Counted from the stretch's first letter, positions 5,365 through 45,743 are shown. The stretch: DNA of 64,000 nucleotides from Syntrophobacterales bacterium (GCA_037441775.1 JBBIRO010000008.1:13054-77053); one strand, 5' to 3'. The notes: generated by a model from the sequence alone, not told the origin. Numbers and translations: made by a program.

Positions 5365-5397
5365 CGCCGTAAGGCGTTGATCTGAGAGGATGTGCAT

Positions 5398-12677: not shown

Positions 12678-12704
12678 TGGCCTGATAAAGTTGAAGGAGA
12701 ACCA

Positions 12705-15776: not shown

Positions 15777-15820
15777 AAACCACCGACACCGCCTTCCAGC
15801 TTGAGGAGTACACCGTCAAA

Positions 15821-16588: not shown

Positions 16589-16625
16589 GAGGGCAGAGAG
16601 AAGAAGCCAATAGAGGAAAGCGACT

Positions 16626-17078: not shown

Positions 17079-17084
17079 GGGGAA

Positions 17085-19013: not shown

Positions 19014-19618
19014 TGAGCGAAATCATTTTAGATATTGACGGTAAAAAGGTTCACGCCAGCGAGGGGATGATCCTGCTCGAAGCGGCGCGCCGGGCGGGAG
19101 TATCGATTCCGACGCTCTGTCACCACGAAAAATTGGAACCTTACGGGGCCTGCCGAATCTGCACGGTGGAAGTGGAAGCCGGCGGCTGGACGAGACTCGT
19201 TGCGGCCTGCGTTTACCCGGTCGAGAGAGATCTCGTCGTCAGAACTAGATCCGAGAGGGTCAACAAGATTCGCCGGCAGATCCTGGAGCTATTGCTGGCC
19301 CATGCCCCCTATGCGGGCCAATTGCAGGATTTGGCTAAAGAGTATGGAGCTAATCCGCGCCGCTTTGAGCAGGAGACCTCCTATTGCATCCACTGCGGCC
19401 TGTGCGTCAGGTACTGCGCTGAGGTCAAAAATAAAAACGCTGTTGGATTTATCGACAGAGGGACAAGGCGCGAGATAAGTTTCATTCCCGAGATAGCAGC
19501 CAGGGAGTGCTGGGACTGCAAGGAATGTTTTCCCCTCTGCCCCACCGAAGCGCTGCAGGCAGCGTTTGTCTTAACCAGGGCGCTTTCACCTTCCCTCAAA
19601 CCAAAGAACGAGGAATAA
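19013..19618 (+). CDS. bamI: BamI, NuoG N-terminal-like [2Fe-2S]/[4Fe-4S] subunit
   Basis: Plant-type 2Fe-2S motif (TLCHHEKLEPYGACRICTVEV) and the CIHCGLCVRYC cluster. TAATG overlap with bamH. Confidence 0.7.
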   Translation: MSEIILDIDGKKVHASEGMILLEAARRAGVSIPTLCHHEKLEPYGACRICTVEVEAGGWTRLVAACVYPVERDLVVRTRSERVNKIRRQILELLLAHAPYAGQLQDLAKEYGANPRRFEQETSYCIHCGLCVRYCAEVKNKNAVGFIDRGTRREISFIPEIAARECWDCKECFPLCPTEALQAAFVLTRALSPSLKPKNEE

Positions 19619-28160: not shown

Positions 28161-30107
28161 ATGGCGGAACCTGAGTATCGCAGTTGGGTGGAGGTTGACC
28201 TCGACTGCTTCACCCGCAACTGGGAAGAGATGAAACGCCTGGTGAAGCCGGGAGTGAAGATAATGCAGGTCCTCAAGGCCGATGCCTACGGTCATGGCGC
28301 AATCGAAATCGCCAACGTGGCTCTGCAAAACGGTGCCGCCTGCCTGGGTGTGGCCAATGCCGATGAAGCTGTCCAACTCCGGGTTGGCGGCGTAGATGCA
28401 GAGATCATCATCCTGAGCCCATCCTTCCCTGCGGAAATAGGCGAGATCATAAAGTATAGCCTGGCGCCCTCCATCTCCGACGAATCCTTTGTGTGGCAAC
28501 TCCAAAAGCGCGGCCAGGCGGCAGGGATTCGGATTCCGGTGCATCTGGAAATCGATTCCGGCATTGGCCGGGCGGGCATCAGCGCTGATCAGGCGCTCGC
28601 CGTGATCCGCAAGATCAATAATATGCCTAATATTTTTTTGGAGGGCATCTTTACCCACCTGGCGATCAGTGAAACTTCCGATGAATATAATCTGTGGCAG
28701 TGGCGGAACTTCAATCAACTATTGAACCTTCTTTCCCGGGAAGGCATTAATATCCCAATCAGGCACATGGCCAACAGCGGCGCTATGATAAATTACCCGG
28801 AGTTTCAACTGGATATGGTAAGGCCGGGGCTGATGTCGTACGGGATATTTCCCACGGCCGATTCGGTGGGCCGGATCAGCCTGAAGCCGGTAATGACCTT
28901 CAAAACGCGCATCCTCTTGATTAAGGAGTTTACCGCCGGTTCCAGTATCGGCTATGGCCGTTCCTATATCACGACCAAAACCAGCAGGATTGCCACCATT
29001 CCGGTCGGCTACGGCGATGGCTATGGTTTTGTCCTTTCCAACCAGGCAGAGGTTTTGGTGATGGGCAGGAGAGTGCCGGTGGTCGGTCGGGTCTCGATGG
29101 ATTTGTGTACCATCGACGTTACCGACCTGCCTGACTGTGCCGCCGGCGCCGAAGTGGTTCTTTTGGGAAGACAGGGCGAAGAATATATCTCGGCCCGGGA
29201 GATTGCCGAGAAGGTGGGAAGCATCAGTTACGAGGTGCTCTGTGCCCTGGGCAAAAGGGCGCCCAGGATATTTCTCAAGCAGGGGCTGATCGGCGCCACG
29301 GAACCCCGGCTTAGAAGGGTATTCATCCCCGATGAGGAGCGGTCACTTTCACGGATCGACAATATCATCAGGAGCTGTCTCCACACCCGCGCCAAAAGCG
29401 TCGATCTTGGAGATGCCATCTATTACGAAATGTTAGAGACGATGTTTGGAAAAGATGATCGACAACTCGAACTGCGATCGGACTTTCGCTACGATATAAC
29501 CGTTGCCCGGTTGGATAAGAAACGACCGACAAGTCCAACGGATGATGATGGCTATCTGGAGGTGACAACCCATGTCGAATATCGGAAAATTCTCAAAAAC
29601 CACCTGTTCATGATTGGTTGCGCCAACAATAATGAGCAGTTGGCGGCTTTCTTCGAAGACCCTCGCTGTCAGTACCGCTGGCTTTTGGGCAACGGGGAAG
29701 ATCTGGTGGCGCCGCAGGATTTTCAGGTTACGGCGGTAAGGGTGGATGGAGAAACGGTTCCGGTCGAAACCGCCGCGGCAACCGAGCGGGGATACGAAGT
29801 CTGGGCCGGAGGCGAATGCCTGCGCGATAAGATTCAGCGGCCGGTTAAAATCGAGCTTGAGATTGTGACCAAAAAATCGAGAGCAAAAAGAGATTTTTCC
29901 GTCCACATCGTCTATCCGACTCAAGGTTTGGAGATAAATTTTAATTACGCCAAAACGGGTATGAAAAACGTCCGGGAGGTGATTTTCTTCTCCGGCCGAC
30001 GCCCCTACCCACTGGTGCGCAGGCGGGAGGGGATGTCGATCAACGTTGTTGTTCCCAGGGAAGAATGGGTCTTTCCCCATAGCGGGGTTACTTTCATCTG
30101 GGATTGA
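28161..30107 (+). CDS. alr: Alanine racemase (N-terminal ~375 aa) fused to an uncharacterised ~270-aa C-terminal domain
   Basis: PLP-lysine region VLKADAYGHG, YGRSY, and GRVSMDLCTIDV, ending near ...ALGKRAPRIF. It then continues for ~270 aa (RRVFIPDEERSL...VTFIWD) that I cannot assign to any family. A typical Alr is ~360-390 aa. Confidence 0.85.
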   Translation: MAEPEYRSWVEVDLDCFTRNWEEMKRLVKPGVKIMQVLKADAYGHGAIEIANVALQNGAACLGVANADEAVQLRVGGVDAEIIILSPSFPAEIGEIIKYSLAPSISDESFVWQLQKRGQAAGIRIPVHLEIDSGIGRAGISADQALAVIRKINNMPNIFLEGIFTHLAISETSDEYNLWQWRNFNQLLNLLSREGINIPIRHMANSGAMINYPEFQLDMVRPGLMSYGIFPTADSVGRISLKPVMTFKTRILLIKEFTAGSSIGYGRSYITTKTSRIATIPVGYGDGYGFVLSNQAEVLVMGRRVPVVGRVSMDLCTIDVTDLPDCAAGAEVVLLGRQGEEYISAREIAEKVGSISYEVLCALGKRAPRIFLKQGLIGATEPRLRRVFIPDEERSLSRIDNIIRSCLHTRAKSVDLGDAIYYEMLETMFGKDDRQLELRSDFRYDITVARLDKKRPTSPTDDDGYLEVTTHVEYRKILKNHLFMIGCANNNEQLAAFFEDPRCQYRWLLGNGEDLVAPQDFQVTAVRVDGETVPVETAAATERGYEVWAGGECLRDKIQRPVKIELEIVTKKSRAKRDFSVHIVYPTQGLEINFNYAKTGMKNVREVIFFSGRRPYPLVRRREGMSINVVVPREEWVFPHSGVTFIWD

Positions 30108-30229: not shown

Positions 30230-31282
30230 ATGAAGATAAAAGTGGGAGTATTTTTCGGGGGGGTGTCCTCGGAGCGCGAAGTTTCGCTAAACAGCGGTCG
30301 CAATGTTTACGACAACCTGGACCGGGATACCTATGAGCCGATCCCTTTTTTTGTGGATAACAAGATGGGACTCTGGATCCTCCCCTGGCAGCTTGTCAGC
30401 CAGAACACGACAATGGATATCGTGGAGAGACTTGCTTCCGAAGCGAAAAGGGTTTCCTATGAGGAAATTCCGGACATGATCGATTTCGCGTTTCTTACTC
30501 TTCACGGAAAATACGGTGAGGACGGCTGCTTCCAGGGACTAATGGAATTGCTCGGCCTGCCCTATAGCGGCTCCGGCGTCCTGGGGTCGGCTTTGGGGAT
30601 GGATAAATACCGCCAGCAGCAGTTCCTTAAGGCCGCCGGCCTGAAGGTGCCGACCAGCATTATGGTGACTCAAGAGGATTGGGAGACCAAAACGGAAGAG
30701 GTGCAAAAGAAAATAGCCGCAGCTCTAACTTACCCCCTGTTCGTTAAGCCTACCAGGGAAGGTTCAAGTATCGGTGTGAATAAGGTGAAGGACGAAGAAG
30801 CCCTGCCACAGGAGATGGCAAAAGCACTGACTTGGGATGAGGCGGTATTGGTGGAGGAGTATCTGGACGGGATAGAGTTCTCATGTATAATCATTGAGGA
30901 GGATGGCCTGGCCCGGTCGCTGGATGTGACTGAAATTCACCCCCAGGGTACTTTCTACGATTACGACGACAAGTACATGCCAGGGCGCTGCCGCAAGTTT
31001 ACCCCGCCGAAACACATACCGGCTGAGGGTGTGCAAAAGATCAAGGCCGACGCCCTGCGGGCGTTTCATGCCCTGGAATTCCGATCCTATGGCCGGATAG
31101 ACGGCTTTTTTATGAAAGATGGCCGCGTCTTGATAACCGATCCCAACTCATCCTCCGGGATGGCGCCCTCGTCCTTTTTCTTTGAGCAGGCCGCCGGCGC
31201 CGGGTTCTATCCCGGGGCGATTTTATCCATAATTATTGAGGAGGCCAGAAAAATCCACCGGCGCAAGAAGGGGCCACTGTAA
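30230..31282 (+). CDS. ddl: D-alanine--D-alanine ligase
   Basis: MKIKVGVFFGGVSSEREVSLNSG N-terminus, HGKYGEDGCFQGLMELLGLPYSG, ATP-grasp core. Start set at MKIKVG; the track ORF begins 42 codons earlier in non-conserved sequence. Confidence 0.95.
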   Translation: MKIKVGVFFGGVSSEREVSLNSGRNVYDNLDRDTYEPIPFFVDNKMGLWILPWQLVSQNTTMDIVERLASEAKRVSYEEIPDMIDFAFLTLHGKYGEDGCFQGLMELLGLPYSGSGVLGSALGMDKYRQQQFLKAAGLKVPTSIMVTQEDWETKTEEVQKKIAAALTYPLFVKPTREGSSIGVNKVKDEEALPQEMAKALTWDEAVLVEEYLDGIEFSCIIIEEDGLARSLDVTEIHPQGTFYDYDDKYMPGRCRKFTPPKHIPAEGVQKIKADALRAFHALEFRSYGRIDGFFMKDGRVLITDPNSSSGMAPSSFFFEQAAGAGFYPGAILSIIIEEARKIHRRKKGPL

Positions 31283-31423
31283 ATAAGGGTGCGCTTCAAT
31301 TATGACGGGCTTGTAAAAAGTCGGCCCGATGTAAGTTTGAGGACGGCTTGGTAAAAATGTCGCTCGCCCTGGCGCGCAAATCACGGGAAATATGGTATTT
31401 CATTTGTCTGGGAATATAGGAAG

Positions 31424-31921
31424 TCAAAAAATATTTTCCCTGGCAGTTTCCCCCATCCATTTTTTTTCCAAAGAGGGGGCCAAGGGGAGCGCGAGCGTGA
31501 CCTTTCGTCCAATATTTGCAGAACTCCGCACACAGCAAACATGGTACAAGCTGCTCTTATAATAGCTAAGCACATAGGCGCCATCGAACATTACAATCCA
31601 GGCATTTTTTGTCTGGCTTTCGAAGGTTGTGGACGACCAATAGGACAAGTTTCCCAGAAAAAATACCTCTTGGCGAACCAGGGGGCGCCCGTCCGGACGC
31701 GCCCCGGTTCGGTCCAGTAAGGATTCCAGATCAACCAGGGTTGGCAGACGCCAATCGTTTTTGCCGGCCAAGAAGAGTGACCCCGCATATTCCATAGCTT
31801 CGTGCCAGGTCATCCGGCCCGGAGATGCAACCTGCCATTCCAGGCCGGTTTCCGGATCTTCCCATGTAGGCGTTTTTTGTCCCTGGGTGCAAATATTAAA
31901 CAACTTCTCAAATCCTCGCAT
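31424..31921 (-). CDS. DUF1566 (Lcl C-terminal, lectin-like) domain protein without signal peptide
   Basis: TGLEWQV...MTWHEAMEYA...GKNDWRLPTLVDLESLL matches the DUF1566 pattern. Start set at MRGFEKLF (GAAGGGA upstream), overlapping the upstream gene's stop by 14 nt. Confidence 0.6.
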   Translation of the reverse strand: MRGFEKLFNICTQGQKTPTWEDPETGLEWQVASPGRMTWHEAMEYAGSLFLAGKNDWRLPTLVDLESLLDRTGARPDGRPLVRQEVFFLGNLSYWSSTTFESQTKNAWIVMFDGAYVLSYYKSSLYHVCCVRSSANIGRKVTLALPLAPSLEKKWMGETARENIF

Positions 31922-33809
31922 CAATCCCTTCAGGAAAATCTTCTGGATCGCCCCAGAATATGCAGCGCGTCGGGCAGACGGCGAAACAAGCCGGCTGTTC
32001 ATTATGGCCCCTTTTTTCAATGCAGAGGTCGCACTTTACCGCCTTGGCCAGGTACTGGTTAAACTGCATCACATCATACGGACAGGACTGGACGCAGGAA
32101 CTCCCACAGGTGATGCAGCGCCTGGCCTCCTGCGTAACCAGGTCTTCGGTCAGCAGCAGCTCTACTTCGTTGAAATTTTTTATTCGCTCTTGAGGACTCA
32201 GTGAAGGCGTTTGCGTCCGGGCCGCGGGATCGTATTTTTCCTTTTGTGGTTCAGTGATCGGCTTGAGTTCGATATCTCTCCCTAAGCGCAGGTTCTGACC
32301 TCTCAGGTAGCGGTCGATAGATATGGCCGCCTGCTTCCCATCGGCAATAGCTTCGATGACTGTTTTGGCCCCGCGGACCGCGTCTCCCCCGGAGAAGACA
32401 GCGGGATCATCAGTTTGCAGCGTCAAGGGGTCAACCTTCATTGTTCGAGTGCTGTTGAGCTTAGCGCCGCACCCGTCATTCAGGCATGACCAATCCGATT
32501 CCTGCCCCAGGGCGGTGATTACCGCATCCACGTTAATCGTGAATTCTGAACCGGGGATGGGAACAGGACGCCCGCGCCCGCTTGCGTCTGGTTCCGTCAA
32601 TCGTGTCTTGATGCATTCGATCGCTTCAACCCGCCCGTTTTTTCCGATAAATCGCACCGGTTGGGTAAGGAGGTGGAGCGTAATCCCCTCCTCCTGGCAG
32701 GCTTCAATTTCTTCCTGTCGCGCGGGCATTTCTTCCCGGCCACGCCGGTAGAGGATAAAGGCGTTGTCCGCCCCCAATCTGCGCGCCGACCTTACGGCGT
32801 CCAGCGCTACATTTCCCCCGCCGATTACGGCGACATTCTTGCCAAGCGAAACAGGGCTTCCCAGGTTGATCTGGCGAAGATAATCCAGTCCATTATAGAC
32901 CTGGGCCAGGTCCTCGCCCGCAATATCCAGCCGAAGGGCTTTCTGCGCGCCGATGGCCAGGAAAAAGGCCTGGAACCCCTCATCGCGCAATTTAGCGAAG
33001 GTGGTATCTTTTCCCACCTCAACGCCGGTTTTCATGGTCACGCCCATCTTGCGAATCAATTCAATCTCCGCCTGGACAATTTTGCGCGGAAGGCGGTAAG
33101 CCGGTATTCCCAGGGTCAACATACCTCCCAATAGCGGTGACTTCTCGAATACAGTTACCTGATATCCTTCCTGCGCCAGATAGTACGCACAGGTCAAGCC
33201 GGCAGGGCCGGAGCCGATGATGGCAACCCTGGCCTCTTTTTTATCTTTAATTTCCGGCCGATAACGCTCTCGGGCATTCAAATCAAGATCGGCCAGAAAA
33301 CGTTCAATTGCGTGGATGGCGACGGGTTTGTCAATTTGATCCCGTTCGCAGGCCGCTTCGCAAGGGTGAGGGCAGACCCGCCCGCAGATCGATGGGAAGG
33401 GGCTTGATTCTTTGATCAGCTCGAGCGCCTCTCGGAATCGTCCCTTGACTGCCAGGCTGACATAGCCCTGGACATTGATGTGCGCCGGGCAGCCCACCTT
33501 GCAGGAGGATGTATCCTGTTTTTCCACCCCCGACCTGCCCGGCACCGCGTTACAGCCTGTGCATTTCCCGTTGTCGTGCAAGACAACGCCGGTCAGCGGA
33601 TCGGTGGTGATAGCCAGTTCCGGACAGGCCTTCGCGCAGGGGGCATCGGTGCAATGTTGACAAAACAAGGGCCGGTAAAAAGGCGCCCTCTCCAGCACTC
33701 TAACCACTTTCGGGCCGGCCGCCAGCCCATGCTCCTGCTTGCAGGCCACTTCACAGGCGTGGCACCCCATGCATTCCGCTTCGTTGTACAGCAAGGTAAT
33801 TTTACCCAT
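31908..33809 (-). CDS. FeS-flavoprotein: N-terminal ferredoxin + GltD/NfnB-like NAD(P)H-FAD oxidoreductase + C-terminal ferredoxin
   Basis: CMGCHACEVAC, CQHCTDAPCAKACP, CTGC clusters. GltD-type region (CPHPCEAAC..., RVAIIGSGPAGLTCAYYL, GGMLTLGIPAYRLP, VAVIGGGNVALD). C-terminal CITCGSSCVQSCP...CDLC...CFAVCP. 633 aa. Confidence 0.8.
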   Translation of the reverse strand: MGKITLLYNEAECMGCHACEVACKQEHGLAAGPKVVRVLERAPFYRPLFCQHCTDAPCAKACPELAITTDPLTGVVLHDNGKCTGCNAVPGRSGVEKQDTSSCKVGCPAHINVQGYVSLAVKGRFREALELIKESSPFPSICGRVCPHPCEAACERDQIDKPVAIHAIERFLADLDLNARERYRPEIKDKKEARVAIIGSGPAGLTCAYYLAQEGYQVTVFEKSPLLGGMLTLGIPAYRLPRKIVQAEIELIRKMGVTMKTGVEVGKDTTFAKLRDEGFQAFFLAIGAQKALRLDIAGEDLAQVYNGLDYLRQINLGSPVSLGKNVAVIGGGNVALDAVRSARRLGADNAFILYRRGREEMPARQEEIEACQEEGITLHLLTQPVRFIGKNGRVEAIECIKTRLTEPDASGRGRPVPIPGSEFTINVDAVITALGQESDWSCLNDGCGAKLNSTRTMKVDPLTLQTDDPAVFSGGDAVRGAKTVIEAIADGKQAAISIDRYLRGQNLRLGRDIELKPITEPQKEKYDPAARTQTPSLSPQERIKNFNEVELLLTEDLVTQEARRCITCGSSCVQSCPYDVMQFNQYLAKAVKCDLCIEKRGHNEQPACFAVCPTRCIFWGDPEDFPEGIDARI

Positions 33810-33827
33810 CGGTTTCCTCCTATCCGT

Positions 33828-35915
33828 CTATCCCTCACAGGGAGATATGTTGCATAAACAGACTCTGAGATTGGTGGATCCCATCGCGGGATCCAGGGTC
33901 TCATAGGCATTGTCGGTCAGGATGTTGACATTGGAAATGTCCCAGCCGTGGCCCGAATCTTTCATCTCCGGGTACCACCAGCCATGCTCGGAAACAATTA
34001 CCCGGGGATCAATATTGTCGTTGAGTTTAGCGCGCTGCTTAATTCGCCCCCGCGGGGAGGAGATATAAACCCATTGACCGTCTTTTATCTGATGTTTTTG
34101 GGCTGTCTCCGGATGGATCTCCACGATGGGATCGGGCCTGATCTCCCTTAACCAAGGTATCTGCCGGTTTGCCGAATGGAAAAATGTTGGCGTCCTGAGG
34201 CCCGCATTGAGGATATAGGGGAAATCCTTGAGGAGTTCCGGTTTGGAGACCGGGCTTTCGGGAACTTCCACATATTTAGGGAGGGGATCGTATCCCCATT
34301 TCTCCAGAACGGTCGAATAGAGCTCCACCTTTTTGGTCGGTGTGGAAAAACCGCGCTCTTTATATTTCCGATAAACCATTTCGCCCCGGAGATATCCCTT
34401 TTCCTTGAACTGTTCCCAGGTCAGGCCCGATGGTTCGAGCAGGTAATCCAGCGCGCCCTCCACCGTGTCTGGCCAGTCCTGGCCCATTCGTTTACCCAGC
34501 TCCAGAAATATCTTATGGTCTTGCCAGCATTCCCCGATCTCGACGCACTTTTGCCTTGCCAAAACAAATCCGTGCCGTTTCCAGTTGTCAGCCACATGGT
34601 TTTGCTCAAGCCAGGTGCCCGCCGGCAGGAAGATATCCGCCAGTTCCGCAGTCGGCGTCAAAAAGAAGTCCACCACAACGAGGAACTCCAGTTGCTTGAG
34701 CGCCGCGTAGGCCTCTTTGGCATTGGCTCTGGTAACTACGGGATTGCTGCCGCAGAGGATACCGGCCTTGAGCGGATAGGGTTTGCCGGTGACAATGGCG
34801 TCCCAGGCCTTCTTGGGATTAATAAGCGCCACCCTGGCTCCCAGCTTGAACTGATCACCGCCCAGCCTTTTCTTTTGCTGTTCCGGAGAAAGATCCCGGT
34901 GGCGGGAAAATTCGGCCACGGTGCGCGTGGGCGGGTTTACAAACAGGGCATTCCCGCCGGGGGCGTCGAGATTCCCGGTTATGGCCATCAACCCGGTCGT
35001 GGCACGGGTATAATTGACGCAGTTGATGGTCTGTTCCGTGGGAACGCCCCAATGGATACAGGCCGGCTTCGTCGTGGCATACATTCTCGCGGCCTGACGA
35101 ATCAGATCCTTGTCAATCCAGGTGATTTCCTGGATTTTGTCCAGGGGGTAGTCCTTCATCACCCTTTCCCTAAAGGGCTCCCAGCCATGGATGTAATTTT
35201 CGACGAATTCTTTTTCGTAAAGCTCCTCTTCGATGATGACTCGATGAAAACCCATGGCCAGCGCGGCATCAGTCCCCGGTCTGATCTGGAGCCAAAGGTC
35301 CGCTTTATTGGCGATAAATCCCTTGCGGGGATCGATGCAGATCAGCTTGCTTCCCTTTTTATAGGCCCGCCAGAAAGATTCCCCCTTGTATTCATCCGGG
35401 TTGTTCCACTGCGGATTGCAGGCCCACATGACAATACATTTGGGGTCGCCTTCATAATCGGCGATGGGCAGCGTACCGCAGGTGATCAGGGTTGACCCCA
35501 CCCGGGAGACATAACACATATGTCCGGCGGTAAGCACATTCGGGGTTCCCAGCAGGTTGGAAAAACGGTAAAGATGGCTTTCATAATCCCGACCCGTTCC
35601 TTGACCAACCACAATGGATTCCGGCCCGTATTGGGCGATCACATTTTGAAACTTCTCCACGATGGTATTCAACGCCTCATCCCAGCTAATCCTTTGCCAG
35701 CCCTGATCCGTCTTTTTCATCGGATGAAGTATCCGGTCAGGATGGTACGCCAGCTGCGTAATGGCCAGGCCCTTGGTGCACAAAGTCCCGTGGCTGATGG
35801 GTGAGTCTGGATCGCCCTCCACCTTGATCACCCGGCCGTCCTTTACATGGGCGATGACCCCGCAGCCCCCATGACAGCTCCGGCAAGCCGTTCTAATTTT
35901 CTTAACCTCTTCCAT
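33828..35915 (-). CDS. Cytoplasmic molybdopterin (bis-MGD, DMSO-reductase superfamily) oxidoreductase catalytic subunit
   Basis: N-terminal 4Fe-4S motif CRSCHGGCGV...C without a twin-arginine signal. MopB domains. Candidate metal-ligand Cys in GHMCYVS. C-terminal molydopterin-binding barrel (IHPETA...GDWV.I.S.RG). 695 aa. Confidence 0.85.
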   Translation of the reverse strand: MEEVKKIRTACRSCHGGCGVIAHVKDGRVIKVEGDPDSPISHGTLCTKGLAITQLAYHPDRILHPMKKTDQGWQRISWDEALNTIVEKFQNVIAQYGPESIVVGQGTGRDYESHLYRFSNLLGTPNVLTAGHMCYVSRVGSTLITCGTLPIADYEGDPKCIVMWACNPQWNNPDEYKGESFWRAYKKGSKLICIDPRKGFIANKADLWLQIRPGTDAALAMGFHRVIIEEELYEKEFVENYIHGWEPFRERVMKDYPLDKIQEITWIDKDLIRQAARMYATTKPACIHWGVPTEQTINCVNYTRATTGLMAITGNLDAPGGNALFVNPPTRTVAEFSRHRDLSPEQQKKRLGGDQFKLGARVALINPKKAWDAIVTGKPYPLKAGILCGSNPVVTRANAKEAYAALKQLEFLVVVDFFLTPTAELADIFLPAGTWLEQNHVADNWKRHGFVLARQKCVEIGECWQDHKIFLELGKRMGQDWPDTVEGALDYLLEPSGLTWEQFKEKGYLRGEMVYRKYKERGFSTPTKKVELYSTVLEKWGYDPLPKYVEVPESPVSKPELLKDFPYILNAGLRTPTFFHSANRQIPWLREIRPDPIVEIHPETAQKHQIKDGQWVYISSPRGRIKQRAKLNDNIDPRVIVSEHGWWYPEMKDSGHGWDISNVNILTDNAYETLDPAMGSTNLRVCLCNISPCEG

Positions 35916-36082
35916 CAGTTCTCCTCCTTATGAGTTATCGGGGTTATAAACTTAAGAATGCCGGCAAAGGTCGCTATGATTTCGGCATTCTTAAGGATTG
36001 CAGGATTATCCTGCGCGAGCGTCCGCAGCTTATGGGCGCTTTCTGATATCTTCTCGATTTCCCTGCGTATCTGCTCATGCAT
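35915..36082 (-). CDS. Small unannotated ORF (55 aa), translationally coupled between the ligase and the molybdoenzyme
   Basis: Below the ORF-track cutoff. MHEQIRREIEKISESAHKLRTLAQDNPAILKNAEIIATFAGILKFITPITHKEEN. The ATG is 4 nt after the ligase TAG, with GAGAGGGA upstream. Its TGA shares one base with the ATG of the molybdoenzyme (TGATG). Confidence 0.45.
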   Translation of the reverse strand: MHEQIRREIEKISESAHKLRTLAQDNPAILKNAEIIATFAGILKFITPITHKEEN

Positions 36083-36086
36083 TTTT

Positions 36087-37388
36087 CTATCCCTCTCTCA
36101 AATCTTTAAACCGTTTGGCCTTGAGCATGTAGCGCGGCAGCGATTCCGGCGGCTCAAGCTGTACATGAAAGGAGAGGTTGGTCTTCACCTTCAATCTCTC
36201 CATAAGCCTTGCTTTTGTCTGTAGCGCCTCATCATTTCCAAGCTTTGGCGACAGCTCCGCCTTAAGGATAATTTCATCCATGATCCCGATCCTCTTTACG
36301 ACGATCTCGTATTCGACGACCTCCGGGAATTCCTGTCTGAGGGCTTCTTCCACTGTCATCGGCGAAAAAAGGACCCCTCTTATTTTTCTCAAATCGTCGG
36401 TTCTCCCCAAAACCTCTTTTATCTTAAGTGAACTCCGGCCGCAGGAGCAGCAATCTTTTCCCTTGATTACGAGGTCTTTGGTGTTGAACCTAATCAGGGG
36501 AAAAGACCTTCGGCCTAAAGGGGTGACCACGACAATGCCCATCTCACCTTCCGCCACCTCTTCCCGGAGGTTTTCAGGGTCGAGAATCTCAACCAAAAAA
36601 AAGGGTTCAATCAGATGCAGGCCGTCTTTTGCCTCGCACATACCAGCCCAGGCGCAGGGTTCCGTCCCGCCGATGTGGTCGAAAACATGGCATTGGAAGA
36701 GCTCTTCGAGTCTTTTTCGCGTCGCTTGCGGCATCGGTTCTCCCGCGCAAAGCATCCGTTCAATCCCCAGCGAGGCCGGATCAATACCCAAATTTTTTGC
36801 CTCCTGGGCAAGGTGGAGTCCATAGGTCGGGGTGTTCATCATCCCGTTGGCGCGGATCTCCAGGATCTTGTGAATCCTCCCTTTGGTATCAAGCGCCCCT
36901 CCGGGGACCAGTTCGCAACCCAGCTTTTCCGATGCAAAATGGGCTTCCCAAAAGGCAACATAAACATTATAGCCAAAGGGAAGAAAGACCCGATGGCGGG
37001 GTCTGAACCCGGCCATATAGAGGATATGACACCATACCTCGGTTCTCCACTGCCAGCTTTCATAGGTTTCTGGCACATAGACCGGTATTCCCGTCGTTCC
37101 ACTCGTCTGCCGGAAGCAGGTGACGCTGGCAATATCCGTTCCCAGCGTCCCGCCATAGGGGAAGGGATCCATCGCCTGGTAGAGACGCAATTCTTCCTTG
37201 TCGGTGAGAGGGATTTTTCCGATATCGTTTAGCGTTTTGATATCATCCGGGTTAATTCCCCTTAACTTGTCCTGATAGAGCCGGGAATGGTCCTTGGCAT
37301 AGGAGAGCATCTGGCGAAAGTAGCTAAGTTCAATCTGGGTCAATGATTCTCTGGGCAGGGTCTCTAAATAAGGATTCCAGTACTGCAT
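36087..37388 (-). CDS. Phenylacetate-CoA ligase family (PaaK / F390-synthetase-like) adenylate-forming enzyme
   Basis: MQYWNP...LE N-terminus, TSGTTG AMP-binding motif, GEPMP and RTDDLRKIRGV motifs typical of PaaK-like ligases. 433 aa. Confidence 0.85.
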   Translation of the reverse strand: MQYWNPYLETLPRESLTQIELSYFRQMLSYAKDHSRLYQDKLRGINPDDIKTLNDIGKIPLTDKEELRLYQAMDPFPYGGTLGTDIASVTCFRQTSGTTGIPVYVPETYESWQWRTEVWCHILYMAGFRPRHRVFLPFGYNVYVAFWEAHFASEKLGCELVPGGALDTKGRIHKILEIRANGMMNTPTYGLHLAQEAKNLGIDPASLGIERMLCAGEPMPQATRKRLEELFQCHVFDHIGGTEPCAWAGMCEAKDGLHLIEPFFLVEILDPENLREEVAEGEMGIVVVTPLGRRSFPLIRFNTKDLVIKGKDCCSCGRSSLKIKEVLGRTDDLRKIRGVLFSPMTVEEALRQEFPEVVEYEIVVKRIGIMDEIILKAELSPKLGNDEALQTKARLMERLKVKTNLSFHVQLEPPESLPRYMLKAKRFKDLREG

Positions 37389-37409
37389 CGCTTGATCCTC
37401 CTGTCCTAC

Positions 37410-38240
37410 CTAATTGTCCACCCCAGAGGGGAAGATGGATTGCGTTTCGGCCCCCAATTTTTGTGAAATAGTCCCGGCTATTCGGACAACCTGCCGGCCA
37501 TATTCCTGAATCTTGATCCGGGGAAATGTTCCGATGAGAATGAGACAGCCAATCATTTTCTCGCCCAGGCCAAACACGGGCGAGCTGACCACGTTCACCC
37601 CTGCGGTAACTTCCCCCGCATCCCAGGCAAACCCCTGCTGCCGGCATTGCCGGAGATCATTTTTTAAACGATCCATATCCGGCAGCGATGTTTCTCCATA
37701 AAAGTAGAGCTTCTTTTGGGATAGGATTCTTTTTTGGTCATAATCGTTCATAAAGGCGACCATCGCTTTCCCGTGGGCTCCCAGGGTGATATGGAAGCGG
37801 TGCCCCAGGCGCAAGGAAAACCCGATATTCTGATTTCCTTCGTGCTTGGCCACCACAAAGAGATGATCGGCGCTGATAATGGCAAAAAGCGCGGTTCCGG
37901 CAGTTTCCTTGGCCAGTGGTTCAAGAAAGGGAGCGACTACGTCAGGATAAGAAAGCTGATCCAGTATTCTGCGTGATAAAAAAATTAAACCCGGGCCCAA
38001 AAAGTAGGTTTTTGCATGGTCATCTTTTTCTACCAGGCCAAACATTTTCAAAGTGTTGAGAATCGAATATCCTTTGCTCTTGTGGATGCCGACCGCTTGG
38101 CATATTTCCGTAAGCGTGATCTTGAATTTTTCGCTTTTCCCCATGTGGAGAAGGATTTTTGCCGCCTGCTCAACCGCGGGGACGAGAGGCTTAGTATTTG
38201 GAAGATGGGAGGCCGTCTCTTCGGCAGGGGTTATTTTCAT
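37410..38240 (-). CDS. IclR-family transcriptional regulator
   Basis: N-terminal HTH (FKITLTEICQAVGIHKSKGYSILNTL) and a C-terminal IclR effector domain (GVNVVSSPVFG). First gene of the minus-strand operon. Confidence 0.9.
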   Translation of the reverse strand: MKITPAEETASHLPNTKPLVPAVEQAAKILLHMGKSEKFKITLTEICQAVGIHKSKGYSILNTLKMFGLVEKDDHAKTYFLGPGLIFLSRRILDQLSYPDVVAPFLEPLAKETAGTALFAIISADHLFVVAKHEGNQNIGFSLRLGHRFHITLGAHGKAMVAFMNDYDQKRILSQKKLYFYGETSLPDMDRLKNDLRQCRQQGFAWDAGEVTAGVNVVSSPVFGLGEKMIGCLILIGTFPRIKIQEYGRQVVRIAGTISQKLGAETQSIFPSGVDN

Positions 38241-38278
38241 ATTTCAACCTTAAGAGTAAAGCCTGCAACGGAAAATTA

Positions 38279-38312
38279 TTCTATATATAGAACTATGTTC
38301 TGTATATTACAA
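38279..38312 (-). promoter_or_regulatory. Candidate sigma70-type promoter of the IclR operon, overlapped by palindromic operator-like sites
   Basis: The minus strand reads TTGTAA-17 nt-TATATA about 40 nt upstream of the iclR ATG. The -10 lies inside the perfect 14-bp palindrome TTCTATATATAGAA (38279-38292). It is adjacent to GAACTATGTTC (38290-38300). Confidence 0.35.
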
Positions 38313-38555
38313 GGAGCCGTTCTGGCTTGTCAAGCGATTTTTTTCAGAATATCCGAAACGCCGCAAAGGGTTATTTTTCGGGAATTACGGGAAGTTTTTT
38401 CTTTGAAGTGAAAACAATCAGTGGTAGAATGATATCAAATTATCGGAAAAAGCGAAGTTCGTATATTAATTGTTCGTGGATGCTATCGGAAAGATGGAAC
38501 CTATGTTCGAGGTCATTATAGAGCAAGGCCGCGTCGATAACTGAGAATTGCAGCT

Positions 38556-39242
38556 ATGAACTTAAAAGTAAATATATTCCTAGTGTTATTAACCACCATT
38601 TTTCTACCGATCTTGGTGCAGGCCCAAGAACATGTAGGGCGTGTTCTTGGAGTAACTGATGGGAATACAATAACCCTTCTCGATCCGAGCAAGCACCAAA
38701 TCAAGGTACGGCTTGCCGAGATTGATACACCGGAATCCGCACAGCCCTATGGCAACCGTGCAAAACAAGAACTTTCTAAATTGGTATTCGGGAAGACGAT
38801 TACACTCAAAGTGCACGATACCGACCGCTACGGACGTATTGTTGCTCGCGTCTATGTTGATACGCTTGATGTAAATGCTGAAATGGTGCGGCGAGGTGCG
38901 GCTTGGGTTTATAGGAAGTATGCAAGAGATCATGGCCTTTATGTTTTAGAAGATCAAGCGCGGCAAGCCAAAGTGGGCTTGTGGAGCTTGACGGAAGCGG
39001 AAAGAGTTCCGCCGTGGGAATGGCGTAATGCCAAGCAAAGGCCCTCTAAAGACGAAGCAACCATCCCAGCATATAGCCAAACACCTCAACATAGCACCGG
39101 CCAAGGTTTTACGTGCGCTGGCAAAACAAAATGTGGGCAAATGACTAGTTGTGCAGAGGCGTATTTTTACTTGAACCAATGTGGGCTCACCAGTCTTGAT
39201 AGGGATAAAAACGGAATACCATGTGAAAGCATATGTCGCTGA
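38556..39242 (+). CDS. Secreted thermonuclease (SNase-like) with a C-terminal Excalibur Ca-binding domain
   Basis: Signal peptide (LPILVQAQE). SNase motifs (VTDGNTITL...IKVRLAEIDTPE...DRYGRIVARVY...NAEMVRRGAAWVYRKY). Excalibur C..M.SCAEAYFYL..CG...LDRDKNGIPCE. The GC content is lower than its surroundings. Confidence 0.85.
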   Translation: MNLKVNIFLVLLTTIFLPILVQAQEHVGRVLGVTDGNTITLLDPSKHQIKVRLAEIDTPESAQPYGNRAKQELSKLVFGKTITLKVHDTDRYGRIVARVYVDTLDVNAEMVRRGAAWVYRKYARDHGLYVLEDQARQAKVGLWSLTEAERVPPWEWRNAKQRPSKDEATIPAYSQTPQHSTGQGFTCAGKTKCGQMTSCAEAYFYLNQCGLTSLDRDKNGIPCESICR

Positions 39243-42603: not shown

Positions 42604-44109
42604 CTATGACTCCTCCCGGAACGCTTCCTCACGCTTTTTGTATAATGCCGGAATACATGCCAGAAGCAGGGCCAGAACGGCCAGCCCCAGCAGGGTCGCG
42701 CTGATGGGCCGTTGTAGGAAAACCATCGGGTCGCCACGGGAAAGGAGCAGCGCCCGGCGCAGATACTCTTCCATGAGGGGCCCCAAAATAAAAGCCAGGA
42801 GCATCGGCGCCGGCTCACAGTCCAGTTTGGTGAAGATGTAACCCAATATCCCGAAGATCGCCATAAAGTAGATATCAAACTCGGCATTTTTCAGGCTGAA
42901 TACGCCGATCGCGCAAAAAACCAGAATCGCCGGAAACAACAGGCGGTAGGGCACCATGATTATCCGCACCCACATTCCGATCAAGGGCAGGTTCAAGATG
43001 ACAAGAAAAAAGTTGCCGATCCACATGGAAACGATAATCCCCCAAAACAATGCCGGCTGCTGCGTAATTACCGCCGGTCCCGGCTGGATGCCTTGAATAA
43101 TCATGGCGCCAACCATGAGGGCCATTACCGGATTGGATGGTATCCCGAGGGTTAAAAGCGGGATAAACGAGGTCTGGGCGCCGGCGTTATTGGCCGATTC
43201 AGGGGCCGCAACACCTTCGATTGCGCCCTTCCCGAATTCAGCCGAGTTCTTGGAAATCTTCTTTTCTATGGAATAGGCGGCAAATGATCCCAGAATTGAG
43301 CCGCTACCGGGCAGGATTCCCAGTGACGAGCCGATAGCCGTCCCGCGGAGAATTGGCATGATCATGCGCTTCCAATCCTCCCTGGTCGGCATCAGACTGG
43401 TTATTTTTGTCACTATTTCTGAGCGGAGCCTTTCGTTCTCCAGGTTGCGGATAATCTCACCCAGGCCGAACATGCCCATTGCCACCACGACAAAACCAAT
43501 GCCATCGGCCAGCTCGGGTATACCGAAGGTAAATCTCTGGAGGCCGGAGTTGACATCCGTGCCGACCAGCCCTAAAAGCAGGCCCAGCACGACCATGCCG
43601 ACGGCGTGTAGAAGCGACCCCTGGGCCAGTACCACTGCGGCGATCAGTCCCAGCACCATCAGGGAAAAATAATCCGCGGCACCAAACTTGAGGGCCATCT
43701 CGGCCAAAGGCGGCGCGAACAGGGCCAACAGGAGGGTTGCGACAGTTCCGGCAAAAAATGAGCCGATAGCGGCTGTGGCCAGCGCCACGCCGGCCCGTCC
43801 CCGCCTGGCCATCTGGTAACCGTCCAGAGTGGTGACCACCGATGCCGCTTCGCCAGGCAGATTCACTAGAATGGAAGTGGTGGATCCGCCGTACTGGGAG
43901 CCGTAGTAAATGCCCGCCAGCATGATCAAGGCGGAAACCGGCGGCAGCGTGAAGGTGATAGGCAGGAGCATGGCGATGGTCGCCGTAGGCCCCAGTCCGG
44001 GTAAAACACCGATCAGGGTACCGAGGAAAACGCCGATCAGGCAGTACAACAGATTGGCCCAGGTCAGGGCCGTATCAAAACCTAAACTAAGGTTGGCAAG
44101 CAGTTCCAT
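42604..44109 (-). CDS. tctA: Tripartite tricarboxylate transporter, large permease TctA
   Basis: 501-aa polytopic protein with TctA-family motifs (GVLPGLGP..., GGSTTSIL.N.PGE, LPGSG, PESANNA). Confidence 0.9.
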   Translation of the reverse strand: MELLANLSLGFDTALTWANLLYCLIGVFLGTLIGVLPGLGPTATIAMLLPITFTLPPVSALIMLAGIYYGSQYGGSTTSILVNLPGEAASVVTTLDGYQMARRGRAGVALATAAIGSFFAGTVATLLLALFAPPLAEMALKFGAADYFSLMVLGLIAAVVLAQGSLLHAVGMVVLGLLLGLVGTDVNSGLQRFTFGIPELADGIGFVVVAMGMFGLGEIIRNLENERLRSEIVTKITSLMPTREDWKRMIMPILRGTAIGSSLGILPGSGSILGSFAAYSIEKKISKNSAEFGKGAIEGVAAPESANNAGAQTSFIPLLTLGIPSNPVMALMVGAMIIQGIQPGPAVITQQPALFWGIIVSMWIGNFFLVILNLPLIGMWVRIIMVPYRLLFPAILVFCAIGVFSLKNAEFDIYFMAIFGILGYIFTKLDCEPAPMLLAFILGPLMEEYLRRALLLSRGDPMVFLQRPISATLLGLAVLALLLACIPALYKKREEAFREES

Positions 44110-44136
44110 GGTGCCTTTATAGTTGTATTGCGTTCA

Positions 44137-44643
44137 TTAGCGGGTTAACCACGAACCAAATATCGGCAGCGGCACTCCAAGGCCCTTTAGAAATACCAGA
44201 ATACAAAAAATGGTCAGTCCTGCCGCCAGAGCGAGGGACTCCGCCCAGCGAAACCTGATGCTGGCATAGGCGCTGAGAATTATCAAGGTCGGCAGGGCGA
44301 TAACTAGACCGGCGCCCCGGACAATAAGACCAAAAAGGATTATCGCCGCGGTGACCAAAAGGAGGCCCCGAAAGGCGAATGCTGTAATCGGAGTGCCCGG
44401 CTGGATAAACGAACGCGTCAGGGAAATAATGCCAATGATTATCAGCAGGCTGCTTAGAAGCGTGGGGAAATAGGCCGGGCCCATCTTGAGGGAACTGCCC
44501 AGCGGATAATTCTGGCTGATTAGAAGAAACATCCCCCCCACGGCCATATAGATTATGCCGGTCCAGAAATCTTTGGTATTTTTTATGTTCGCGGTCAAGG
44601 CATTCTCCTTAAGGAGGGAAAATGGCGTAGCTTTGTTGACCAT
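44137..44643 (-). CDS. tctB: Tripartite tricarboxylate transporter, small subunit TctB
   Basis: 168 aa with four predicted TM helices, positioned between tctC and tctA. Confidence 0.75.
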   Translation of the reverse strand: MVNKATPFSLLKENALTANIKNTKDFWTGIIYMAVGGMFLLISQNYPLGSSLKMGPAYFPTLLSSLLIIIGIISLTRSFIQPGTPITAFAFRGLLLVTAAIILFGLIVRGAGLVIALPTLIILSAYASIRFRWAESLALAAGLTIFCILVFLKGLGVPLPIFGSWLTR

Positions 44644-44768
44644 TCGCCTGGGATGATGAACCCCGGCGCAGGGACTAATTTCGAGAGAAACAGCGTATGT
44701 TCTAAAAATGTTTAGGCTATAGGCCGCTGAGGCAGGGGCGAATAATTATTCGCCCCTACCTGTAGGTG

Positions 44769-45743
44769 CTAGTCGGCATAAATGCCGGCCTTTTTGATGA
44801 TTGGCCCCCATTTGTCGATTTCGGATTTAAGCTGAGTGCGCAGCGCCTCCGGAACGGCACGCGATTCGTGCATCACCTCGATGCCCAGTTCCGCGCAGCG
44901 CTGTCTGAGGGTGGGGTCTTTGAGCGACTCCTGTAGAACTTGAGAAAGCCTGTCAATGATCGCTTTTGGTGTGCCTTTGGGAGCGTAGAGACCATTCCAG
45001 ACGGCCACCTCAAAATTCGGCAGGCCGGCCTCATGAAGTGTCGGCACATCGGGAAGAACCGGCAGCCGCTTCTTGGTTGTCACACCGATGATCTTAATCC
45101 TGCCGCCCTTGATCTGGCTGATGGTATTGTTTACCTGGTCGCACATGATGTCCACCTGGCCGCCGAGCAGGTCATTCATGGCCGGTCCGGTGCCACCATA
45201 GGGAACGGTGGTCAGGTCGGTATGGATTGCCGTCTGGAAGAGCATCCCGCAGAGGTGGGCGGCGGATCCGATACCGGCATTGGCCAGGTTGATCTTCTGC
45301 CGATGGGTCTTAATGTAGGCCAGAAGTTCCTTGAGGTCATTGGGTGGGAGGTCCTTCTTGGTAACCAGGGTCATGGGAATGTCGGCAACCAGGCCAATCG
45401 GCTCGAAGTCACTGATCGGGTCATAGGCAAGTTTGCGATAGAGGGATACGGCGGTGGAATGGCCGATATGGTGGATGAAAATGGTATAGCCATCCGGCGC
45501 GGATTTGGCAACCCGGGCCGCGGCGACCGTACCGCCCGCTCCGGCTACATTTTCCACGATAACCTGGGTCTTGAGCGCCGCACCCATCGGCCGCGCCAAA
45601 AGACGGGCGACGACGTCGGTTGGCCCGCCGGCTGCAAACGGCACAATGATGGTGATTACCTTCGACGGGTACTGATCCGCAAAAACCTGGGGTACGAAGA
45701 AAAAAGAAAGACAGATAAGAACTCGTAAAATCTTTGCAACCAC
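44769..45743 (-). CDS. tctC: TctC/Bug-family periplasmic substrate-binding protein
   Basis: Signal peptide, then YPSKVITIIVPFAAGGPTDVVARLLA, typical of Bug/TctC receptors. 324 aa. Confidence 0.9.
   Translation of the reverse strand: MVAKILRVLICLSFFFVPQVFADQYPSKVITIIVPFAAGGPTDVVARLLARPMGAALKTQVIVENVAGAGGTVAAARVAKSAPDGYTIFIHHIGHSTAVSLYRKLAYDPISDFEPIGLVADIPMTLVTKKDLPPNDLKELLAYIKTHRQKINLANAGIGSAAHLCGMLFQTAIHTDLTTVPYGGTGPAMNDLLGGQVDIMCDQVNNTISQIKGGRIKIIGVTTKKRLPVLPDVPTLHEAGLPNFEVAVWNGLYAPKGTPKAIIDRLSQVLQESLKDPTLRQRCAELGIEVMHESRAVPEALRTQLKSEIDKWGPIIKKAGIYAD

Follow-up and report, generated by a model that had tools for sequence, protein, structure and literature searches.

We analysed a 64,000-nucleotide (nt) stretch of DNA from a Syntrophobacterales bacterium (GCA_037441775.1 JBBIRO010000008.1:13054-77053; referred to as the window, with positions counted from its first letter), which carries six co-directional, tightly packed minus-strand genes at 31424-38240. 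They encode a cytoplasmic molybdenum or tungsten (Mo/W) enzyme of the clade that contains acetylene hydratase (AH) and the catechol dehydroxylases, with an obligatory iron-sulphur (FeS) partner and a firm link to an acid-CoA ligase, an IclR-type regulator and organic-acid uptake. All six open reading frames (ORFs) were confirmed at the positions given below, and the recomputed intergenic spacings of 21, 4, −1, 18 and −14 nt were identical to those in an earlier description of this DNA (the sequence-only reading), which had likewise treated the genes as one operon and whose domain calls were all upheld by Pfam and NCBIfam. The genes, in the order of transcription, are:

37410-38240, minus strand: IclR-family transcriptional regulator, 276 amino acids (aa); Pfam IclR_C 9.5e-22, HTH_IclR 2.3e-5
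36087-37388, minus strand: PaaK-like adenylate-forming acid-CoA ligase, 433 aa; Pfam AMP-binding, AMP-binding_C_2
35915-36082, minus strand: small helical protein, 55 aa; no Pfam match
33828-35915, minus strand: catalytic Mo/W bis-pyranopterin subunit, 695 aa; three molybdopterin domains (Pfam)
31908-33809, minus strand: FeS-flavoprotein, electron-transfer subunit, 633 aa; Fer4_11 at both flanks, Fer4_20, Pyr_redox_2
31424-31921, minus strand: cytoplasmic Lcl_C/DUF1566 protein, 165 aa counted from the ATG; Lcl_C 1.6e-22

The catalytic subunit and its clade

The Mo/W subunit starts with MEEVKKIRTAC..., and because just 10 residues precede the first cysteine of the FS0 [4Fe-4S] site (C11-x2-C14-x3-C18...C46), no twin-arginine translocation (Tat) signal is possible. 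Within the motif GHMCYVS, Cys134 was aligned with Cys141, the tungsten ligand of AH. The subunit is predicted to be a cytoplasmic, Cys-ligated enzyme of the dimethyl sulfoxide (DMSO) reductase family with His15, Tyr135 and Arg138 as active-site residues, in agreement with the sequence-only reading, which had named the family, the N-terminal 4Fe-4S motif, the missing Tat signal and the candidate Cys ligand in the same motif. That reading had also considered the enzyme AH-like rather than a respiratory reductase, and AH was indeed the nearest solved relative both by sequence and by fold. When searched against solved structures, the subunit matched AH best (2e7z, E = 2e-126, 426 bits), while polysulfide/thiosulfate reductase (PhsA) and FdhF scored about 200 bits and pyrogallol transhydroxylase 46 bits. 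Foldseek also placed AH first (1.8e-55, template modelling (TM) score 0.73), with the best formate dehydrogenase at 8e-40; the AlphaFold model behind this search had a predicted local distance difference test (pLDDT) score of 65 with low-confidence active-site loops, and was used for the fold match only. All NCBIfam families stayed far under their cutoffs, the top match being TIGR01591 (Fdh-alpha, 322.6 bits against 666) and the second PhsA (280 bits against 694), and no PadB-named family was among the 25 best matches. With AH far ahead, the subunit did not cluster with the formate dehydrogenases.

The FS0 cysteines, the bridging Lys48 and the Cys metal ligand of AH were kept (C11, C14, C18, C46, K48 and C134, corresponding to AH C9, C12, C16, C46, K48 and C141) and were invariant in the window family, for which 81 members were aligned and active-site positions were judged on the 80-81 sequences aligned at each. 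The catalytic Asp13 of AH, beside the second FS0 cysteine, was in contrast His15 in all 80 family sequences aligned there. Four residues of the hydrophobic ring that makes up the acetylene pocket of AH (Ile14, Ile113, Ile142 and Trp179) were replaced by Gly16, Gly108, Tyr135 and Pro173, and two of the six were retained (AH Trp293 and Trp472, window Trp289 and Trp445). His15, Gly16, Gly108, Tyr135 and Arg138 were invariant across the aligned family sequences, as were Pro173, Trp289 and Trp445.

Catechol dehydroxylases are, by an earlier report, sister to AH (PMC7028382). Those of the Gordonibacter type (Dodh, Cldh and later Gp Hcdh) lack a Tat signal; their catalytic subunit is smaller, its sole partner is a small 4Fe-4S protein, and transporter genes adjoin (PMC7028382, PMC11574389, PMC11887054). 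Using the dehydroxylase sequences in the Figure 6 source data of PMC7028382, BLASTP with the window Mo/W subunit gave 37 % identity and 458 bits for an unnamed Gordonibacter-type sequence, 36 % and 407 bits for Cldh, 37 % and 405 bits for AH, 34 % and 395 bits for Dodh, and 30-36 % and 214 + 156 bits for two segments of Dadh. AH and Cldh scored lower against each other (30 % identity, 266 bits) than the window protein did against either, which places the window family between the two characterized groups. A neighbour-joining tree of 150 sequences, a simple method in which the rooting on Dadh is an assumption, branched first into the Gordonibacter group, then the window family and then a large, motif-diverse group containing AH; monophyly of the window family was recovered in 150/150 bootstraps and its grouping on the AH side in 142/150, so that it formed a separate branch not nested within the Gordonibacter group.

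At the active site, the motifs of the window subunit (C-H-G-G-C and H-M-C-Y-V-S-R) correspond to C-H-x-G-C and C-[MY]-x-P-R in Cldh, Dodh and a third Gordonibacter-type sequence, while AH carries C-D-I-N-C and C-I-G-N-T. All 13 Gordonibacter-clade sequences had His at the position of His15 together with C-[YMF]-x-P-R, and 12/13 had the full C-H-x-[GN]-C. We compared the 344 positions that were invariant in a 12-sequence sample of the family with this 13-member clade and with AH: 35 recurred in the Gordonibacter clade and were absent from AH (among them H15, G106-R109, G131, Y135, R138 and H580), and 19 were common to AH only, most of them FS0 and electron-transfer residues such as Cys11 and Lys48. 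By this comparison, the catalytic pocket appears to resemble that of the dehydroxylases and the electron-entry side that of AH. The C-H-x-G-C and Cys-[Y/M/F]-x-P-R motifs may be determinants of dehydroxylase activity; we found no published mutagenesis of them in the literature. Dadh Arg506 was aligned with the invariant Arg304 of the window family. Among 132 clade representatives obtained by clustering at 50 % identity, the AH-type Asp was present in 5 and His in 45, indicating that only a small part of the clade consists of true acetylene hydratases. Signature peptides of the window family were sought in the eLife supplementary alignments and none was found, and the eLife study probably did not sample this family.

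The window family and the Gordonibacter type thus share a clade next to AH and the motifs C-H-x-G-C and C-[YMF]-x-[PS]-R; in both, a Tat signal is absent, the catalytic subunit forms a two-component system with a small 4Fe-4S protein, and transporter genes lie nearby. However, the Gordonibacter type has lost the first FS0 Cys and lacks the FS0 motif (PMC11574389), whereas the window family keeps all four FS0 Cys and Lys48, and its subunit is shorter (695 aa in the window compared with 770-800 aa). The ferredoxin of the window family often carries an inserted NAD(P)H-FAD module, and the enzyme is linked to a CoA ligase, IclR, DUF1566 and the 55-aa protein. Its hosts are Desulfobacterota, Chloroflexota and Acidobacteriota, known from metagenome-assembled genomes (MAGs) of sediments and groundwater, whereas the Gordonibacter type occurs in gut Coriobacteriia; its role is likely to be catabolic and not respiratory. 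Eggerthella-type Dadh belongs to the same broad clade, with C-x-x-P-R after the Cys ligand and a similar C-terminal WWYPE...GHGW, but is about 1000 aa long with large insertions, Tat-exported and membrane-anchored, and uses free catecholamines as respiratory acceptor. AH of Pelobacter acetylenicus (2e7z; W, non-redox) is cytoplasmic and of similar size, but it is a monomer with neither the electron-transfer partner nor the ligase linkage of the window enzyme. The combination of an intact FS0 site, cytoplasmic location, an NAD(P)H module within the ferredoxin, and DUF1566, 55-aa and ligase partners is unlike that of every described clade member.

Electron-transfer partner and conserved neighbourhood

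The partner had been described not as a DmsB/DmsC-type pair but as a ferredoxin-GltD/NfnB-ferredoxin fusion, which was right in outline. Since the 153-aa four-motif ferredoxin of one related locus (L044:10562-11023) aligns to residues 1-88 and 555-627 of the 633-aa protein, the latter is one DmsB-like ferredoxin into which a GltD-type module of about 465 aa has been inserted. This GltD/NfnB-type module comprises Fer4_20 (2 x [4Fe-4S]) and FAD and NAD(P)H Rossmann motifs (G-x-G-x-x-G/A) at residues 199 and 330, and the protein marginally passed the cutoff of PRK12771 (516.6 bits against 516). Its best solved relatives were 9bov_A, NfnA 9n5u and 8oh5_C, followed by NfnI, GltD small subunits and dihydropyrimidine dehydrogenase; 8oh5_C was deposited as a formate dehydrogenase subunit, and we take it to be the StnC subunit of the Sporomusa Stn transhydrogenase. 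NfnB/GltD/StnC-type modules are matched by residues 100-505, with both Rossmann motifs intact, but the window module, unlike those, is embedded in a ferredoxin of the DmsB type and works for a Mo/W subunit that is a separate protein with a cofactor, and nothing indicates electron bifurcation. About half of the related loci carry a bare ferredoxin of about 150 aa (range 150-180 aa), and the full flavoprotein version was present in 25/56 informative loci. A 209-aa partner at L008:2635-3264 keeps the start of the GltD FeS domain and has lost the FAD domain. A module of this type would fit an electron donor better than an acceptor.

To survey the gene set, we scanned one genome per GTDB species and obtained 194 relatives of the Mo/W subunit, and more than 120 clusters at 90 % identity; locus analysis was carried out on the best 80 (76-91 % identity, L001-L080), all of them MAG or symbiont metagenome assemblies with no cultured host among them. 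These belong to Syntrophaceae, other Thermodesulfobacteriota, Desulfobacterales, Anaerolineae/Chloroflexi, Acidobacteriota, a Planctomycetia bin and an Olavius symbiont, and a subunit conserved to this degree across phyla is unusual; the relatives were annotated by generic names only. In a library clustered at 50 % identity, the next relatives were at most 47 % identical except for three fragments (56-75 %, partial length), indicating that the window family is a tight orthologous group. The same gene order recurred in the 80 independent MAG loci, which argues that the operon is beyond chance association. A ferredoxin-type partner lay downstream in 69/70 informative loci, DUF1566 downstream in 43/56 and IclR upstream in 32/53, while a CoA ligase was immediately upstream in 46/65 and within 6 kb in 32/38, so that the proposed link to a CoA ligase and aromatic-acid metabolism is a conserved one. 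TRAP, Liv-type ABC and MFS transporter genes were recurrent uptake neighbours. Genes resembling those for O-demethylases (corrinoid protein and URO-D-like methyltransferase) occurred in about one-tenth of the loci, several contiguous with the cluster; at >50 % coverage the corrinoid protein was counted in 5 loci and the methyltransferase in 5, with extra URO-D genes in L015 and L016, the latter having a full set of MT1, corrinoid protein and pterin-binding MT2 beside the cluster. Genes of the bam type were near the cluster in the window, in L042 (bamB/C) and in L062 (bamH/I). A literature search on this exact gene cluster returned nothing specific, two benzene-degradation papers of 2026 matching by their reference lists only.

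The ligase scored far under the equivalog cutoffs (TIGR02155 PaaK, 219 bits against 646; NF041878, 203 against 700), and it is therefore not a bona fide PaaK but belongs only to the PaaK-like superfamily; its best solved relatives were 4r1l (209 bits), PaaK1 (178 bits) and 2-hydroxyisobutyryl-CoA synthetase (162 bits). This PaaK-like type is found in most loci and a PaaK-family ligase adjoins the Mo gene in 35/65, while 16/80 loci carry instead an unrelated 552-aa DhbE/FadD-like ligase, whose best NCBIfam match was 2,3-dihydroxybenzoate-AMP ligase (364 bits, under the cutoff). For the IclR regulator, no equivalog model reached its cutoff (BhcR 113 bits, PcaR/PcaU/PobR 96 bits), and comparison with solved structures gave no informative ligand.

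A profile search found a homologue of the 55-aa protein between the ligase and the Mo gene in 42/80 loci (43 matches including the window). The motif is ...IE.L...L..L....P.I.KNA..IL.F...LKF.I.D, the gene always lies between a PaaK-like ligase and the Mo gene, and the same search did not return it in loci with an adjacent FadD/DhbE-like ligase. The ORF is thus a genuine conserved small helical protein linked to the PaaK-like ligase. The Lcl_C/DUF1566 protein has 921 homologues with 44 invariant columns and a conserved core of about 110 aa, with no signal peptide evident in the alignment; it had no solved relative and its AlphaFold model was unusable (pLDDT 48.7). It is probably an accessory subunit. 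The window copy has a 33-aa C-terminal extension (31424-31525) past the usual end ...VRCVRG, at which 24/27 aligned homologues stop, the other three ending within a few residues; this tail may reflect either loss of the stop codon or an extension that arose locally.

A sister Mo/W family with 59 % identity and the motif C-R-M-C-H-G-G-C was equally abundant and sometimes lies a few kb from the main cluster (L004:10788-12908, L017:15390-17546, L081-L086). Its partners are ferredoxin or ferredoxin-GltD and, by lineage, IclR, an AMP-ligase or MFS transporters, without a DUF1566 partner. Its contexts include IclR-Mo-ferredoxin followed by nadC-nadA-nadB in Syntrophorhabdaceae, DUF364-Mo-ferredoxin/GltD in Desulfatiglandales, and Mo-ferredoxin-AMP ligase-nitroreductase-MFS in a Bacillota MAG.

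Proposed function and alternatives

We read the operon as encoding a reductive dehydroxylase that is driven by NAD(P)H or ferredoxin and acts on a hydroxylated aromatic acid, either free or as the CoA ester, with a probability of about 0.45. Dehydroxylation is suggested by the catalytic motifs shared with the dehydroxylases, the two-subunit cytoplasmic layout, the O-demethylase neighbours and the DhbE-like alternative ligase. The substrate is probably a plant-derived, imported, ring-hydroxylated aromatic acid of catecholic type, e.g. protocatechuate, 3,4-dihydroxyphenylacetate, (hydro)caffeate or gentisate. Catechols arise when methoxy-aromatics are O-demethylated; the neighbouring O-demethylase genes, whose products would turn methoxylated lignin monomers into catechols, support phenolic substrates. 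Dehydroxylation is exergonic, with NAD(P)H as a natural donor; in the proposed mechanism NAD(P)H would reduce the FAD of the GltD-like module, from which single electrons would pass through the two [4Fe-4S] clusters of the module and the ferredoxin clusters to FS0 via Lys48 and on to the metal. The Mo(IV) or W(IV) centre, with Cys134 as its ligand and His15, Tyr135 and Arg138 beside it, would then abstract the oxygen of the ring hydroxyl with release of water, a step modelled on the catechol dehydroxylases. The ligase (PaaK-like, or DhbE/FadD-like in other lineages) would form the CoA thioester before or after dehydroxylation, so that either the free acid or the ester could be the form attacked, and the product would enter the benzoyl-CoA route, for which BamB-I genes lie in the same window. 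Expression would be controlled by IclR, with the DUF1566 and 55-aa proteins acting as accessory components.

Cytoplasmic reductive dehydroxylations of aromatic compounds, functionally as proposed here, are carried out by 4-hydroxybenzoyl-CoA reductase (HcrABC/PcmRST), which acts on an aryl-CoA with ferredoxin, and by urolithin C dehydroxylase (Ucdh), a purified phenol dehydroxylase driven by NADH, which provides a precedent. Both, in contrast to the window enzyme, belong to the unrelated xanthine oxidase family, with a single pyranopterin (molybdopterin cytosine dinucleotide, MCD) and a different fold. A narrower proposal, tentative and in our judgement rather doubtful, is that the window and sister families are the aryl-CoA reductive dehydroxylase of strict anaerobes, acting on protocatechuyl-, gentisyl- or 3-hydroxybenzoyl-CoA. 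A bis-pyranopterin enzyme wired to NADPH by the GltD insert would then convert lignin-derived phenolic acids to benzoyl-CoA in many sediment and aquifer lineages. In the 1990s, aryl-CoA reductive dehydroxylase activity was reportedly measured in Syntrophus and Desulfococcus relatives. To our knowledge, the enzyme for protocatechuyl-CoA in strict anaerobes is uncharacterized. The one for gentisyl-CoA was described as uncharacterized in a 2013 review (PMC3727088), and no later identification of an aryl-CoA reductive dehydroxylase was found in the literature.

Several points weigh against a dehydroxylase. The direction of electron flow proposed above rests on thermodynamic reasoning, and the nearest characterized relatives are AH and proven dehydroxylases of just 34-37 % identity, the window and sister families being known from their sequences. 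The rooted neighbour-joining tree sets the window family nearer the AH-containing group, and its complete FS0 site is unlike that of Dodh and Cldh. Active-site motifs vary widely among the 132 clade representatives, and because the clade is functionally diverse, membership alone cannot fix the chemistry. In addition, known catechol dehydroxylases use free catechols, serve respiration and have no CoA-ligase linkage, and no ligase was nearby in 6/38 loci of the present survey. Finally, some recurrent neighbours also fit the alpha-oxidation of arylacetates: a Por/Vor-type 2-oxoacid oxidoreductase with a GltD-like subunit (PadEFGHI-like) lies downstream of or flanks the cluster in L033, L038 and L044, the last of which also carries an ADP-forming acyl-CoA synthetase, and AOR-family genes (6 loci) and class-III aminotransferase genes (9 loci) recall the steps from phenylalanine to phenylacetate.

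These neighbours bear on the function originally proposed, a soluble, NAD(P)-linked analogue of PadBCD (phenylacetyl-CoA:acceptor oxidoreductase) in which the PaaK-like ligase would supply an arylacetyl-CoA and the Mo/W enzyme would hydroxylate and oxidize its alpha-carbon, with electrons passing to NAD(P)+ and the arylglyoxylate being converted to aroyl-CoA. PadBCD of Thauera and Aromatoleum is, from the literature, a bis(pyranopterin guanine dinucleotide) enzyme that acts on a CoA thioester from a PaaK-type ligase and feeds the benzoyl-CoA pathway, and sulfate reducers, whose route from phenylacetyl-CoA to benzoyl-CoA is unresolved, lack PadB and PadEFGHI (PMC5109826); the PaaK-family ligases adjoining the Mo gene would suit such a role. 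However, PadBCD is a quinone-linked membrane complex in which a larger catalytic subunit is joined by PadC and PadD, whereas the partner in the window is soluble and neither a PadC/PadD-like pair nor a membrane anchor was present in the operon or among its recurrent neighbours. The 2-oxoacid oxidoreductase occurs in just 3/80 loci, and its PadE/G/I scores (110/258/241 bits against cutoffs of 300/700/700) are far under the cutoffs and under its generic Por/Vor scores; the alternative ligase of 16/80 loci is DhbE-like, not PaaK-like, and the active-site signature and nearest characterized relatives are those of reductive dehydroxylases and AH. The midpoint potential of benzylic C-H hydroxylation is near 0 mV, making NAD(P)+ reduction strongly endergonic, and NAD(P)+ (about −320 mV) would be a poor acceptor for it. 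The ligase and aromatic-acid link of the sequence-only reading is thus retained, while oxidation of phenylacetyl-CoA by this operon is unlikely.

A true acetylene hydratase was ruled out by the change of Asp13 to His, the four altered ring residues (I14G, I113G, I142Y and W179P) and the conserved electron-transfer partner. The same features make a non-redox AH-like hydratase or lyase, in which the ferredoxin/NAD(P)H module would merely keep the metal reduced and active, decidedly improbable, even though AH is the closest solved structure, FS0, Lys48, Cys134, Trp289 and Trp445 are conserved, and AH needs strong reduction for activity: the Asp that is essential in AH is kept in just 5/132 clade representatives, and AH works without a partner, which is present here in nearly every locus. 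We regard as least credible a cytoplasmic NAD(P)-linked formate dehydrogenase, or a polysulfide, thiosulfate, nitrate or selenate reductase, that lies beside the ligase by chance. The two top NCBIfam matches are of these kinds, and GltD-like partners occur with some Mo enzymes, but formate dehydrogenase and respiratory reductases were ruled out by scores (far under the cutoffs and under the AH score) and by motifs, the selenocysteine (Sec)/Cys-His pair of formate dehydrogenase being replaced by Cys134-Tyr135; an organic acid is also the more plausible substrate in view of the conserved linkage to IclR, the CoA ligase and organic-acid transporters. Some other redox reaction, unpredictable from known relatives and with an aromatic or other acyl-CoA (or the free acid) as substrate, has a better claim and is quite possible, though less likely than dehydroxylation; for example, an aminobenzoyl-CoA could be reductively deaminated, a C-S or C-halogen bond reductively cleaved, or a ring hydroxylated with electrons passing to ferredoxin. 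The clade is huge and its active sites diverse (2459 representatives at 50 % clustering and E < 1e-30, more than 100 of which outscore AH against the query), and while the linkage to the ligase and the electron-transfer partner is firm, that to a substrate is not. Contexts are also mixed, with an aminotransferase and two radical SAM genes (AmmeMemoRadiSam-type radical SAM genes being near the cluster in 6 loci), DAO-GcvT fusions, and a sister family adjoining nadCAB, DUF364 or nitroreductase. Against such a reaction, the most family-specific catalytic motifs (His15, Cys134-Tyr-x-x-Arg) are those common to proven dehydroxylases, and the O-demethylase genes beside the cluster point to phenolic substrates.

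If the operon does encode a reductive dehydroxylase, catechol-dehydroxylase chemistry would extend past the Coriobacteriia, home of all characterized members, to environmental aromatic-degrading anaerobes, in a form that is cytoplasmic, NAD(P)H-coupled and linked to a CoA ligase, and a Mo/W enzyme would be wired to pyridine nucleotides in a new way, by a GltD module within its ferredoxin subunit. The operon could help to show what enzymes strip aryl-CoA esters of their ring hydroxyls in obligate anaerobes, and by what route methoxylated and catecholic monomers of lignin are converted to benzoyl-CoA when oxygen is absent. Should alpha-oxidation be the function instead, the missing phenylacetyl-CoA step of sulfate reducers would be solved. 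The abundance and conservation of the family in anoxic sediments and aquifers add to its interest, and an old question becomes directly testable.

Regulatory region, flanking genes and further observations

Two features lie upstream of the IclR gene:

38304-38333, minus strand: sigma-70-like promoter match, TTGACA-18 nt spacer-TAATAT
38268-38303, strand not applicable: imperfect palindrome between the promoter match and the IclR ATG

The promoter match agrees with the consensus at 10/12 positions and was the top site of a region in which 8 sites were observed against 5.2 expected; it is a consensus match only. The palindrome has 18+18-nt arms that are 78 % complementary with zero spacer, and is a candidate autoregulatory IclR operator. 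The right-hand end of the operon had earlier been set at 38312, which is 72 nt upstream of the IclR ATG, within the promoter match (38333-38304) and outside any gene; it reaches beyond the ATG because the promoter match and the palindrome sit just upstream of IclR. All six genes have an ATG start and a purine-rich Shine-Dalgarno-like stretch upstream, and the overlap of −14 nt hinges on the ATG at 31921 for the DUF1566 gene, whose reading frame stays open upstream as far as a TTG at 32020. An Rfam scan of 30800-39000 gave zero matches, including to the molybdenum cofactor (Moco) riboswitch.

The class II benzoyl-CoA reductase genes that had been noted 12 kb away were located at 8961-19618 (bamB-I), 11.8 kb from the operon, with histidine-biosynthesis genes, chrA, a cyclase gene, alr and ddl between them. 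On the other flank of the operon lie a nuclease gene, an HMG-CoA-lyase-like gene, Tct transporter genes and moaA, and since it is surrounded by unrelated genes the operon is a self-contained unit.

In eight of the related loci (L001, L002, L007, L010, L012, L013, L018 and L023), a class-III aminotransferase gene and one or two AmmeMemoRadiSam-type radical SAM genes lie upstream of IclR; one of the radical SAM genes of this closest subclade has a twin-arginine-like N-terminus, and the set fits no explanation offered here. An 800-aa DAO-GcvT fusion is encoded directly downstream of DUF1566 at L013:8786-11203, with similar genes in L005, L018 and L023; it is dimethylglycine/sarcosine dehydrogenase-like and may be a tetrahydrofolate-dependent demethylase. 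Elsewhere in the window, a second AOR-family tungsten enzyme gene (5392-7287) lies just upstream of ftsY and the complete bamBCDEFGHI cluster. The alanine racemase ORF (28161-30107), which overlaps the ddl start, encodes 648 aa, of which the racemase domains span only residues 12-370, and the C-terminal part of about 270 aa has no Pfam match. A LarA-like gene (lactate racemase N-terminal domain; 46026-47258) adjoins divergent TctC/TctA tricarboxylate transporter genes (42604-45743).

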